Source of the DNA: a virus
Virus genome (UHGV): UHGV-0041832
Length of the DNA: 52,506 nucleotides
Strand: one strand, 5' to 3'
Position 1 is the stretch's first letter. Every line of letters begins with the position of its first letter. Both the position numbers and the translations under genes were made by a program. Below the pieces are notes generated by a model. It had not been told where the DNA came from and did not search any database. It saw only the letters and a program-made list of their open reading frames with translations. Positions 22,521-26,668 of the stretch are shown in pieces.

Positions 22521-22804
22521 GAGCGAAGAAAACAGCAGATCAGAAAGCGTTAGTTATCACTACAACTGATGTGTCGTTATTCACGAAGGGTGAAGAAATA
22601 GATCTTAAATTACTTTTCGGCATGTTTGAGCCACACGAAAAGCCGTGGTTCGTGCATGAAGACAAACAGGGAAATATGCGCGTAGTAGTGCCGGACAAAA
22701 ACAGCGACATATTTTTTGCTATTCCAGACCCGTTACATGACGGTGAATTGCTGGCGGTATTGTTGATCGCTGATGCTGTTACTTATAAAGGGAAAGAAAT
22801 ATGA
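22517..22804 (+). CDS. Hypothetical protein
   Basis: 95 aa ORF, coupled. Confidence 0.4.
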   Translation: MRAKKTADQKALVITTTDVSLFTKGEEIDLKLLFGMFEPHEKPWFVHEDKQGNMRVVVPDKNSDIFFAIPDPLHDGELLAVLLIADAVTYKGKEI

Positions 22805-23028
22805 AAGTTAAATTCTTGCACGATCACGGCTACCCATCATTAAAACGCGTGGTAGGGGAAACGGTAGACGTTGTTCATTCTGATGATGTGACCTGCGTCA
22901 TTTTGGGTAAAGACCTTATCGCTCACGGTGCTGATGATTACTACATTAACCCGGCGTGGTCATATACGTTTAGCCTGGGCGACTTCGTAGGCGATAAGGG
23001 GCGCGGCTTGCAAGTAGTCGAGGGTTAA
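22801..23028 (+). CDS. Small protein, possible member of island paralog family
   Basis: 75 aa ORF. Confidence 0.4.
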   Translation: MKVKFLHDHGYPSLKRVVGETVDVVHSDDVTCVILGKDLIAHGADDYYINPAWSYTFSLGDFVGDKGRGLQVVEG

Positions 23029-23032
23029 TATC

Positions 23033-23248
23033 ATGGACGTTTACGAAGATTTATACCTTCAAACAAATACCAGCACTTTTTATTTTTTGAAAAACGGCGT
23101 CGTATATCGCAGCGATGACGGGGTAATAATGAAAGAGTGGCTATTTAAACGCAAAGACCTACTTGATGACCTGGTTTTTGCCGGGATATTCCGTAAACGT
23201 CCGGCTAACCTGGAAGAAGAAATGCTGATCGACGAGGTATTAAAATGA
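23033..23248 (+). CDS. Hypothetical protein
   Basis: 71 aa ORF. Confidence 0.4.
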   Translation: MDVYEDLYLQTNTSTFYFLKNGVVYRSDDGVIMKEWLFKRKDLLDDLVFAGIFRKRPANLEEEMLIDEVLK

Positions 23249-23490
23249 AAGTGAATTATTTCAGGGCAAAAGACAAGGCAACAGGAAAGCGGGTGGCTAT
23301 CCTGGTTAATGAAGCAAATTATATGTTTGTTCTCCAGCCGTGGTGCATAGCTGACTATAACGATGATTATCGCCGTCACGCTGCGCGGCGGGCGGTCGGG
23401 ATGAAAGGCTGGCAGCCTCGCGACATGCTTAATTACTGCGACTGGAATCTGATAGCAAAATACACGGTCGATTATAAAGGGGTTTTCTGA
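23245..23490 (+). CDS. Hypothetical protein
   Basis: 81 aa ORF. Confidence 0.4.
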   Translation: MKVNYFRAKDKATGKRVAILVNEANYMFVLQPWCIADYNDDYRRHAARRAVGMKGWQPRDMLNYCDWNLIAKYTVDYKGVF

Positions 23491-23702
23491 TGCAAGTTAA
23501 ATGCTCATACTCAAGCAATGACAGTGTTTTCACGATTGGGAGTATTTATGACGTTCACATCGTTTATGGCAATGAAGCACACACAATGAGTAATTGCCTT
23601 GCCTTGATTGATAATCATGACGAAATATGGGTATTCAGGCCGAGCTATGAAGGCGGTGAAATATCCGGTGTAGGTTTTGCTGCCAGCTTTGAACGTTATT
23701 AA
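23490..23702 (+). CDS. Small protein, island paralog family member
   Basis: CSYSSNDSVFTIGSIYDV...ALIDNHDEIWVF shares FxxGxIY...(I/V)xDxxxxxW pattern with neighbours. Confidence 0.45.
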   Translation: MQVKCSYSSNDSVFTIGSIYDVHIVYGNEAHTMSNCLALIDNHDEIWVFRPSYEGGEISGVGFAASFERY

Positions 23703-23712
23703 AGGGGCAACA

Positions 23713-23970
23713 ATGAAACATTTATATTTTGAGGTATTGCAGACGCGCGACCGCAATATTTTTGAAGAAGGGAAGATCTATTGCGGCGTTCAACTCCACG
23801 GCGCACCGGGCGGTGATGGTGCAATGGCGATAACTGGCGATGATGATAAAGTTTATTTCGCTTATGTTAGCCATATCAATAACGCCGCTGGTTTGTATAT
23901 TTATCGCATAGTGCATGATTTCCGTGAGATCGCGGAGTTTTGCGCCCGCGAAGGCAGTAAACCGGAATAA
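23713..23970 (+). CDS. Small protein, island paralog family member
   Basis: IFEEGKIYCGV...AITGDDDKVYFA pattern; start at MKHLYFEV with AAAGGGG SD. Confidence 0.45.
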   Translation: MKHLYFEVLQTRDRNIFEEGKIYCGVQLHGAPGGDGAMAITGDDDKVYFAYVSHINNAAGLYIYRIVHDFREIAEFCAREGSKPE

Positions 23971-23980
23971 GTGAGGTGCT

Positions 23981-24220
23981 ATGAATCGGAAACATAGATA
24001 CCAGTGCACATACTCACGATGCAGCGCGTTTTTTAAGAATGGCAAGATCTACGAGGTTGACGCGGCATTGGTTGACGCAAAGGATCAGGAATATATTCAT
24101 GCCATTACTGACGACCAGGGGCAGTTATGGCGATTTTATAAGATGGGTTGTGGCACGGCGCTTGTTTATGCGCGTGCTGGTGGTGGTGCTTTTGCTGCGT
24201 TTTCGTATGTAGGGGTATGA
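23981..24220 (+). CDS. Small protein, island paralog family member
   Basis: CTYSRCSAFFKNGKIYEV...AITDDQGQLWRF pattern. Confidence 0.45.
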   Translation: MNRKHRYQCTYSRCSAFFKNGKIYEVDAALVDAKDQEYIHAITDDQGQLWRFYKMGCGTALVYARAGGGAFAAFSYVGV

Positions 24221-24441
24221 AAATGATTTTAACGTGTAACGAATCGAAATTGGGCTGTTTTGAGGAAGGCGTACAGTACACGGCTGAAAAACCGATGGGA
24301 TTGTCTCCTAAATTTCCGTTTATCGTCGTGACTGACACTTACGGTCACTTATGGTATGCAGGGCCGCTAGGCGGTATTGGTCGTTATGTTGTCCGTAGTT
24401 CGGATGGGGCGATGAAGGTTACTTTTACGGAAGAAACGTAA
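24217..24441 (+). CDS. Small protein, island paralog family member
   Basis: LTCNESKLGCFEEGVQY...VVTDTYGHLWYA pattern; ATGA overlap with upstream gene. Confidence 0.45.
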   Translation: MKMILTCNESKLGCFEEGVQYTAEKPMGLSPKFPFIVVTDTYGHLWYAGPLGGIGRYVVRSSDGAMKVTFTEET

Positions 24442-24969: not shown

Positions 24970-25012
24970 AACACGGGGCCGGATGGCCCCATCAAATCAG
25001 AAGGGTGTAATC

Positions 25013-25312
25013 ATGAAAAGCGCTAAATTTATTGCTTGCTGTTTTGTTGAAGTTCCTAACGATGATGTTTTCTGTAATTATGAATTTAAAGACAGCTTAG
25101 GCAGATCTCATGTTGTTGTTGGTAAGCGCGGCGACTGGTTATATATCACTGATGGAGACAGGATCTTCACTAAAAACCAGTTGTTAATAATAAAGGCAGA
25201 AAATGATGAAATACCAGTAGGTAATATGGGGATTATGAATTATCACGCTGGTTTATTGTTAAAGCACGATACGGTAAACAAAGCGCGTAGCTTACCTGGT
25301 GCGGAGTTTTAA
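25013..25312 (+). CDS. Small protein, possible island paralog
   Basis: Start at MKSAKF with AAGGG SD; VVVGKRGDWLYITDGDRIF pattern. Confidence 0.4.
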   Translation: MKSAKFIACCFVEVPNDDVFCNYEFKDSLGRSHVVVGKRGDWLYITDGDRIFTKNQLLIIKAENDEIPVGNMGIMNYHAGLLLKHDTVNKARSLPGAEF

Positions 25313-25315
25313 TTT

Positions 25316-25570
25316 ATGGAAATAATCAAAATATGGCGCGGCAACAGTAAGGCTGACGGTGAGTTTTGCCGCGTCGTTCAATTCGTAAATTATGGTAGGT
25401 TTTACGAGCTACCTTATGACAAAAGGAAAGATGATTTCTATTTAAGCGAGTCAATCCCGGTGCACAGAAAAATAAAGGCGCTTAGGGGGTTATTGCGAAG
25501 TGGTTTTTATTCTTGCCCTAACCCATTAAACAATCCTGAACTGGTAGCTATTTTTTACGAAGGAGAATAG
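25316..25570 (+). CDS. Hypothetical protein
   Basis: 84 aa ORF. Confidence 0.4.
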   Translation: MEIIKIWRGNSKADGEFCRVVQFVNYGRFYELPYDKRKDDFYLSESIPVHRKIKALRGLLRSGFYSCPNPLNNPELVAIFYEGE

Positions 25571-25573
25571 ACA

Positions 25574-25897
25574 ATGTCTAAATTTATCAGCGTTAAAGTT
25601 TTCCGTGGCACTTTACCGAACGAAGAAAGATTAGGACAATTTGCCGGGCAACCTAGTGCATGTTTCCGTGTAGCCACTGAAGACGATGCGCATGTTAAAT
25701 GCTTCCACGTATCGGAACCGCCTTTTAATGCAGACCATCTTGAAGACCCGGATAGAATTAAAAGCCTAGTTTTTGCCTATCTGATGTTCCAGGGTATCGC
25801 TAATATGGAAGTGGAATTGCTTGGCGCTGAACTGGCGGCAGAATACAAAGTGACTGAAGGCGAAAACGGAGGGGTGGAAATTGAGCGCATCAAATAA
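25574..25897 (+). CDS. Hypothetical protein
   Basis: 107 aa ORF with AGGAGA SD. Confidence 0.45.
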   Translation: MSKFISVKVFRGTLPNEERLGQFAGQPSACFRVATEDDAHVKCFHVSEPPFNADHLEDPDRIKSLVFAYLMFQGIANMEVELLGAELAAEYKVTEGENGGVEIERIK

Positions 25898-26132
25898 ACC
25901 TTACAAGATCCGGTGTAAAGGCGAATACCCTGGGTTTACGATTGGTTGCGAATACCTGGGCCACATTGGGTACGGCCCTTTCGGTGAGTTAGGGATGAAT
26001 ACGATGGACGACGACGGCGACAGCAGGACGCTTGATCTTGATTCTGATGATTTCGAATACATCCCTCCAGTTACTTACCGTGCCGTTGATGATTTCCTGG
26101 CTGAACATGAAGACGAGGGCGATGATGATTGA
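25881..26132 (+). CDS. Small acidic protein, possible island paralog
   Basis: IRCKGEYPGFTIGCEY...MDDDGDSRTL then poly-acidic tail. Confidence 0.4.
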   Translation: MSASNKPYKIRCKGEYPGFTIGCEYLGHIGYGPFGELGMNTMDDDGDSRTLDLDSDDFEYIPPVTYRAVDDFLAEHEDEGDDD

Positions 26133-26319
26133 ATGCCTTATAGCTGTGATTGTTTTGCTTTATATCGCTGGCGCTATCCTGATGTCTTGTTTTATTAAGT
26201 TTAGCGGAGCTGAACCTGGCGGCCTTGAGATTCCTTTTTGGCCTGTGACTGTGTTTATCGCTTTCTTCGACGCTACGGCAGGGCAGATCAATCGAGCTAT
26301 TAAGGAGCGCAAGAAATGA
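26125..26319 (+). CDS. Small membrane protein (two helices)
   Basis: MIECLIAVIVLLYIAGAILMSCFIKF...PFWPVTVFIAFFDA; overlaps upstream stop. Confidence 0.4.
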   Translation: MIECLIAVIVLLYIAGAILMSCFIKFSGAEPGGLEIPFWPVTVFIAFFDATAGQINRAIKERKK

Positions 26320-26495
26320 TTGAAGATGGGGTGTACGCAACAGTAGTAGACGGGCTGTTTTACCGCGTAGAAGGTGATGATATTCGCATCCGCGTTGGCG
26401 GTGGTGAGTGGGTAGCGCCAATCATTAAGACGACGCGAGAAACAATTAAAATATTTCTTGATGCTGGTGAACTGGTGAGGGTTAGCGACCTATGA
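26316..26495 (+). CDS. Hypothetical 59-aa protein
   Basis: Hand-translated MIEDGVYATVVDGLFYRVEGDD...; ATGA-coupled. Confidence 0.35.
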   Translation: MIEDGVYATVVDGLFYRVEGDDIRIRVGGGEWVAPIIKTTRETIKIFLDAGELVRVSDL

Positions 26496-26668
26496 ACGAG
26501 ATCGAAGATGGTATCTATTTGCATAAGGTATTTAACATCGTCTATTTACTTAAAGGTAATAAGGTGATGATAAGACCTGATGACGATCCACATTGGGAAT
26601 CAAGCGACATGGATCGGCGGCATATGCAAATGTTGCTTGATAACGGCCTGATATATAGAAAGCCGTAA
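26492..26668 (+). CDS. Hypothetical 58-aa protein
   Basis: Hand-translated MNEIEDGIYLHKVFNIVYLLKGNKV...; shares EDG(V/I)Y start with the preceding gene. Confidence 0.35.
   Translation: MNEIEDGIYLHKVFNIVYLLKGNKVMIRPDDDPHWESSDMDRRHMQMLLDNGLIYRKP

Follow-up and report, generated by a model that had tools for sequence, protein, structure and literature searches.

The window analysed here is the whole stretch of 52,506 nucleotides of virus genome UHGV-0041832, a temperate coliphage or prophage that resembles mEp021 and falls in the mEpimmI group. Its region 21400-27000 is ~85% identical to phages MagusPhagus and mEp010, mEp013, mEp044, mEp554, mEp021 and mEp515. An island of ~24 short, closely packed plus-strand genes extends from the Q antiterminator to the holin. 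Four neighbouring genes of this island, starting at 23490, 23713, 23981 and 24217, are, by profile comparison, true paralogs that make up one family, here called family A. All four lie on the plus strand. The first (23490..23702) encodes 70 amino acids (aa) with a predicted minimal six-stranded beta-barrel. The second (23713..23970; 85 aa) is the most divergent of the four and lacks the cysteine of strand beta1, and the third (23981..24220) and fourth (24217..24441) encode 79 and 74 aa, respectively. The chromosome of E. coli MS 21-1 holds a site 100% identical to 23490-24441. Among 5426 complete E. coli genomes, 19 carry this segment, at least partly, and the annotation is always 'hypothetical protein'. 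For comparison, the Q-to-holin intervals of six GenBank phages and 23 IMG/VR contigs (29 loci) were collected and all their open reading frames (ORFs) were clustered. These intervals range in length from 2.0 kb in mEp021 to ~6.8 kb. Three further subtypes, x27, x41 and x43, occupy the same slot in related loci and do not occur in the window; x27 bridges 23490 and 23981. In other E. coli prophages, this slot holds an eighth subtype, P0199.

The four window paralogs share 13–30% amino acid identity, and their relationship was assessed mainly with profiles. A first all-against-all hhalign comparison of 38 island gene clusters placed the top 11 of 703 pairs all inside family A or a second family, family B (described below), and the first pair outside these families reached just 23% probability. 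After homologs were added, hhalign linked x27 to x41 (E-value 1e-10), 23490 to x27 (5e-9), 23981 to x27 (7e-8), 23981 to 23713 (2.4e-5; 76%), x27 to 24217 (1e-4; 57%) and 23490 to x43 (1.4e-4). An iterative hidden Markov model (HMM) search was run on all island ORFs together with 3408 shuffled or reversed decoys. It recruited x43 (18.6 bits), then 24217 (15.3 bits) and then 23713 (16.5 bits), against ~9 bits for the best decoy, so that these three outscored all decoys with profiles built without the candidate. Reciprocal searches with single-subtype HMMs were clear for x43 and for 24217, which finds x27 at 15.0 bits (best decoy 6.0 bits). Both profile methods place the four window genes together; profile alignment was among the checks named by the first-pass annotation of this DNA. 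Among the four, 23713 is the member assigned with the least certainty. The alignment of eleven sequences is co-linear over its full length, with the order M-x-V-x-C, F-x-x-G-x-x-Y, D-x-x-G-x-x-W, G and A-x-F; F14, Y20 and F67 are invariant.

Generic beta-hairpin turns (aromatic-x-x-G and an Asp-box-like D-x-x-G-x-x-W) might by themselves converge on such a pattern without any paralog family. The family HMM does catch long beta-propeller-type repeat proteins, such as P0186, through the D-x-x-G-x-x-W hairpin alone, loose G-turn patterns occur in many other island proteins (p<0.01 for 17 of 276 pairs), and gene 25881, which had been counted as a family member, failed the direct family A HMM test. 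We nevertheless consider convergence very unlikely, since the profile matches among 23490, 23981, x27, x41 and x43 have E-values of 1e-10 to 1e-4 over nearly the full length, 24217 and 23713 score above all 3408 decoys, and the members are co-linear across ~70 columns including the C-terminal A-x-F strand. Moreover, family A members are always neighbours in one array. No further ORF of the window matches any of the profiles of families A, B and C (families B and C are described below), and the island proteins with loose G-turns (22517, 23033, 25013 and 21690) never rose above decoys in the HMM tests. The canonical Asp-box/BNR motif is S-x-D-x-G-x-T-W. Homology of D-x-x-G-x-x-W to this motif was rejected: the conserved Asp lies one position off, and beta-propeller proteins match the hairpin alone.

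The first-pass annotation had proposed at least five paralogs from an ordered pattern judged by eye. The five peptides that it quoted all lie at the gene starts it gave, within real plus-strand genes. Its motif, in the strict form quoted, matches only 23981 and 24217, and a relaxed form (F..G..Y.{8,22}D[DNT].[GD][DHQEK]) proved to be island-specific: scanned across all six translated frames of the 52.5-kb window, it gives four matches, all on the plus strand at 23.5–26.0 kb, and none in 100 codon-shuffled windows. Four of the five proteins (23490, 23713, 23981 and 24217) belong to one family, while 25881 falls in another family and is probably only a distant relative. Genes 22801, 23033 and 23245, which lie inside the proposed range of 22801-26668, are non-members. 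Pairwise alignment resolves little of this. Among 276 pairs tested with Smith-Waterman scores and shuffling, only 26316/26492 (p 1e-5) and 23490/23981 (p 1e-4) remain significant after correction, and the remaining pairs fail; 7 of the 10 pairs among the five proposed proteins have p<0.05. Matches to PHROG profiles back both significant pairs independently.

A structural model of 23490 was predicted with AlphaFold2 from a 39-sequence alignment of five subtypes (the four of the window and x43). The model has a mean confidence (pLDDT) of 86 and a predicted template modelling score (pTM) of 0.73 and shows six strands with a long beta1-beta2 loop. We are highly confident that family A consists of phage-specific single-domain proteins of 70–95 aa that share the predicted six-stranded beta-barrel. 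The conserved F-x-x-G-x-x-Y, D-x-x-G-x-x-W and A-x-F motifs would form the core and the hairpin turns of the barrel, and loops and surface charge would vary between paralogs. This fold, a six-stranded beta-barrel in which the beta1-beta2 loop is prominent, is rare, and the predicted structure resembles that of Gp54 of Escherichia phage Bas11 (PDB 9AXB; PF25180, 'Phage antiviral trigger protein Gp54') (PMC11578894). Gp54 directly binds and activates CapRelSJ46, a bacterial immune protein, and even proteins closely homologous to Gp54 do not activate CapRel (PMC11578894). The two differ in their setting: Gp54 is a single-copy protein of a virulent T1-like phage, whereas family A occurs in temperate phages, with as many as five diverged copies in tandem. 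A Foldseek search against BFVD returned many uncharacterised proteins of 60–105 aa from enterobacterial siphophages. A PDB sequence search with the family A profile gave only chance matches, such as titin (E>0.5).

Family A is only partly represented in existing collections. One group, phrog_31142, has no assigned function or fold annotation and matches x27 (3.5e-45), x41 (3.4e-9), 23981 (8e-7) and 23490 (8e-5). Family A is wider than this group, which misses 23713, 24217 and x43 at E≤0.01; 23713 matches no PHROG or Pfam family. A search of 5.8 billion proteins retrieved family members from E. coli phages and prophages only, none with a Pfam domain, and the single-sequence search with 23981 found only orthologs with >74% identity and chimeras. 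One fragment carried a 'PhTx neurotoxin family' label from automated annotation of a metagenome-assembled genome, which was judged spurious. The family A profile, run exhaustively with HMMER against 1.84 billion representatives, gave 32 hits. These comprise the known subtypes, P0199, two multi-domain proteins, and repeat proteins whose match is confined to the D-x-x-G-x-x-W hairpin. P0195, with two tandem domains and a membrane anchor, comes from a T1-like contig on which a Gp54 gene (PF25180) is present too. P0198 has four repeats, was found by the family A profile at an E-value of 1.4e-4 library-wide, and matches the Pfam families DUF6501 (PF20111; 1.3e-10) and DUF7244 (PF23896; 8.9e-6). Both Pfam families show the same motif order as family A (C...F/L-x-x-G-x-x-Y...D-D-x-G) and likewise have no assigned function, but their units are shorter (~50–57 aa) and lack the last strand or strands. 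No family A protein reaches the gathering score of DUF6501 or DUF7244 (the best match, for one of 39 members, is 0.048), and the link is indirect, through P0198 and P0195. In Bas11, the holin is immediately preceded by gene 41, a DUF7244 gene. The Bas11 genome (L030, MZ501085) encodes several small proteins that share this motif grammar, at 12579-12944 on the minus strand and at 8760-8930, 16973-17182 and 18036-18203. The published analysis of mEpimmI genomes does not mention family A (PMC11893012).

The family A genes form a contiguous array directly downstream of the ortholog of gene 23245, a position shared by all members across 30 loci and L032-L034. Their order is [x43 or x41] [x27 or 23490] [23713] 23981 24217. 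There is no copy in mEp021, one in mEp554 and up to five elsewhere. Since mEp021 and mEp554 are viable, the array is composed of dispensable accessory genes. The first-pass view of tandem, diversified paralogs in an accessory region is borne out by this contiguous array of 0–5 members per phage and at least eight subtypes. The longest identical stretch shared by window paralogs is ≤12 nucleotides; recent duplication is thereby ruled out, and the duplications are old.

The arms race that had been suggested for these genes is not reflected in their substitution pattern. The ratio of nonsynonymous to synonymous substitutions (dN/dS; pooled Nei-Gojobori method) was calculated among orthologs within each subtype, because synonymous sites between paralogs are saturated at 13–30% amino acid identity. 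It is 0.13–0.34 in family A and 0.26–0.35 in family B, which indicates purifying selection and is no higher than in neighbouring genes; orthologs of 23981, for example, are >90% identical, with a dN/dS of 0.13. These low values show that the genes are selected coding genes without a gene-wide signal of positive selection. Any arms race, unproven here, would be visible solely as copy-number turnover and chimeric genes. Deletions that join island genes have given rise to several chimeric proteins in the databases, and the island is recombination-prone. Chimeric ORFs include L005:4572-4868 (mEp013_60), L029:5995-6147, P0005, P0007, P0011, P0012, P0055, P0066, P0068 and P0078. Their junctions join 23981 to 26316 (mEp013_60), 23981 to 25013, several genes to the C-terminus of 25574, and x43 to 24217 at T-C-N-E; a 14-nt identity (AACGTGTAACGAGT) lies at the x43/24217 junction in L023.

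Gene 25881 (25881..26132, plus strand; 83 aa), here assigned to family C, lies six genes further downstream, outside the contiguous array of family A. It matches phrog_25234 over residues 1–83 (1.1e-55). Its TTG start is conserved and overlaps the end of 25574, and the N-terminal half is kept in frame in every locus. The protein is predicted to fold into a five-stranded SH3-like barrel (residues 7–61), followed by a predicted-disordered, strongly acidic tail of ~25 residues with a net charge of about -15. SH3-like small beta-barrels (e.g., the SH3 domain of RecD, 5LD2) are among the closest known systems. Gp61 of Bas11 matches phrog_25234 at 2.2e-5 and shares 37% amino acid identity with 25881 across the barrel. 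Relatives of 59–65 aa are many; the T1-like homologs (gp61) have only a short acidic end, whereas 25881 of the mEp type adds the ~25-residue tail. The family A HMM does not recover 25881 (9.6 bits, under the best decoy at 11.6 bits). The deep family C profile, however, aligns with family A in hhalign (63%, E-value 7e-5) in exactly the register that the first-pass annotation had proposed, and among all island clusters, those of family A rank first for this profile once self-hits are set aside. In addition, the family A and family C HMMs both recognise the C-terminal domain of Bas11 gene 48 (13.4 and 17.4 bits, against 7.6 bits for the best of 1600 decoys), and the natural chimera P0068 fuses x43 to 25881, in register, at a shared M-D-D motif. 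Gene 25881 is thus probably a distant cousin of family A and not a member.

The last two island genes, 26316..26495 (59 aa) and 26492..26668 (58 aa), both on the plus strand, form family B. They match phrog_15318 at 1.2e-31 and 3e-30, respectively, and hhalign joins 26316 to the 26492 group at 1.9e-9. The first-pass annotation had pointed to their shared EDG(V/I)Y start; they are paralogs of each other and stand apart from family A. A relationship of family B to family A or C was rejected at the sequence level (hhalign 0.2%), and on these comparisons the two genes are a separate pair. Family B is a second tandem array of one to three members immediately before the holin, and a third subtype, x32, occurs in related phages and matches phrog_15318 at 2.1e-5. 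Within a set of 24 proteins, Bas11 genes 59 and 63 show a weak resemblance to family B (E-values 4e-3 and 4e-4).

The left boundary of the island is the Q-type antiterminator gene (19711-20439, plus strand; PF03589, 4.8e-30), and to the right of the island lie the genes for holin (26775; PF16080), lysozyme (26976) and Rz (27455). A Pfam search of all proteins of the island region gave matches for these four only. A block of ~90 bp (26685..26775, plus strand) marks the right boundary and is near-invariant in 30 loci. It contains a -10-like TAAAAT (26699-26704) and, in a terminator scan, a GC hairpin ACCCGGCCCCGCGCCGGGT followed by a T-run (26732-26756). The block is conserved irrespective of the upstream gene, which fits what a late promoter and a terminator dependent on Q would show, and it looks like a candidate late promoter with a short terminated leader for Q action. 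If so, the island lies upstream of the late operon. The Q stop codon overlaps the start of the next small gene, and the small-gene array and Q are probably transcribed together as part of the early-right operon, upstream of the putative late promoter. Promoter-like sites inside the island are no commoner than in shuffled sequence. The sole sizeable gap within the island (24441-24540) holds a hairpin (AAATGGCA...TGCCATTT) followed by TGTT, and a rho-independent terminator is annotated at the equivalent position in mEp044 and mEp010.

Some other genes of the island region also showed distinctive features. Q (19711-20439) and the second gene after it (20629-20976) both contain CxxC...CxxCGG zinc-ribbon-like motifs, with weak DnaJ_CXXCXGXG matches at 2.5e-7 and 1.7e-3. 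The small hydrophobic ORF 26122-26319 has a pooled ortholog dN/dS of ~0.8, far higher than its neighbours, and may be mosaic, mis-phased or fast-evolving. Gene 23033 (23033-23248) belongs to none of families A, B and C, and its ortholog mEp021_41 is labelled 'virion structural protein' in the GenBank record. A conserved virion structural protein upstream of the lysis region, RegA-like by PLMSearch, has been reported in all 48 genomes of the group (PMC11893012). The protein is unnamed in that paper and is taken to be the 23033 homolog mEp021_41.

With respect to function, we propose that the family A paralogs may be small protein-binding modules, each with a different target among the host proteins, for host takeover or anti-defence. 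This proposal draws on analogy with Gp54, the only characterised protein of the fold. As with Gp54 of Bas11, the family A proteins could be sensed by host immunity. A host-protein-binding or anti-defence function is possible and is put forward tentatively; the overall explanation that blends family, fold and this function seems to us slightly more likely than not. Small SH3-like barrels frequently bind RNA or DNA, and nucleic-acid-binding barrels (Sm, OB, cold-shock or SH3-like) might regulate phage gene expression or lysis timing from the position of family A between the Q antiterminator and the lysis genes, where the neighbouring 23033 homolog mEp021_41 also resembles the RegA translational repressor by PLMSearch (PMC11893012). 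The net charge of the family A subtypes, however, varies from -7.5 to +2.6 and is mostly acidic, which argues against a shared nucleic-acid ligand, and the alignment contains no conserved basic residue. Zero to five copies, with none in the viable mEp021, are also unlike a core regulator, and Gp54, the closest structure, is a protein binder. Regulation through nucleic-acid binding is improbable on this evidence.

The accessory, variable location in a temperate phage would also suit lysogen-benefit genes (superinfection exclusion or anti-phage defence) that are expressed from the prophage and not in lytic growth. The mEpimmI phages encode exclusion functions elsewhere (Lpp and Rep), and promoter-like sites do occur within the island, though at the frequency noted above. 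The family A genes, however, are packed and overlapping, share the orientation of Q and do not form a separate cassette isolated by terminators, PADLOC gave no match, and relatives occur in strictly virulent, non-lysogenic T1-like phages such as Bas11. A benefit to the lysogen is quite improbable for these reasons.

Several results weigh against the host-binding proposal or the evidence beneath it. At the sequence level, no similarity between family A and Gp54 could be detected: the hhalign probability is 0.06%, and not one of the 39 members matches PF25180 at E≤10, while Bas11 gp54 itself, the positive control, matches at 6.3e-34. The fold match could therefore be convergence on a small barrel. 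The AlphaFold2 model was built from a joint five-subtype alignment and is therefore no independent test of the fold of each paralog. The reciprocal HMM of 23713 is marginal (14.5 bits, against 14.1 bits for the best decoy). Family A matches no annotated family, and a search of PADLOC-DB at E≤0.01 gave no match for the seven family genes or three neighbours. Purifying selection within subtypes leaves no signature of ongoing antagonistic coevolution. The copy-number statistics are biased towards array-carrying phages, because L007-L029 were retrieved with 23981 as bait, and the late promoter was assigned from sequence conservation only.

Family A is a new sequence family, tandemly expanded, of a recently described rare fold, as far as the predicted structure indicates. 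Gp54 of Bas11 has so far been an orphan, known only as the trigger of CapRelSJ46 and with no known role in the phage. Its fold now gains a family context, with a tandem-expanded family, unrelated in sequence, in a common group of temperate gut coliphages and with related domains in T1-like phages and in DUF6501/DUF7244. About ten groups of 'hypothetical proteins' that are undescribed in the published mEpimmI analysis now have a fold and a family label. The practical value is moderate because the function of family A is undemonstrated, and natural phages of the mEp collection with 0, 1, 3, 4 or 5 copies offer a tractable system. A more specific version of the proposal, which we regard as doubtful, is that the array is a battery of Gp54-fold binders, each neutralising or decoying a different host immune sensor, with cassettes gained, lost and recombined to match E. 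coli defences. If this is true, the Gp54 fold would serve enterobacterial siphophages widely as an anti-defence scaffold and would not be a one-off CapRel trigger.

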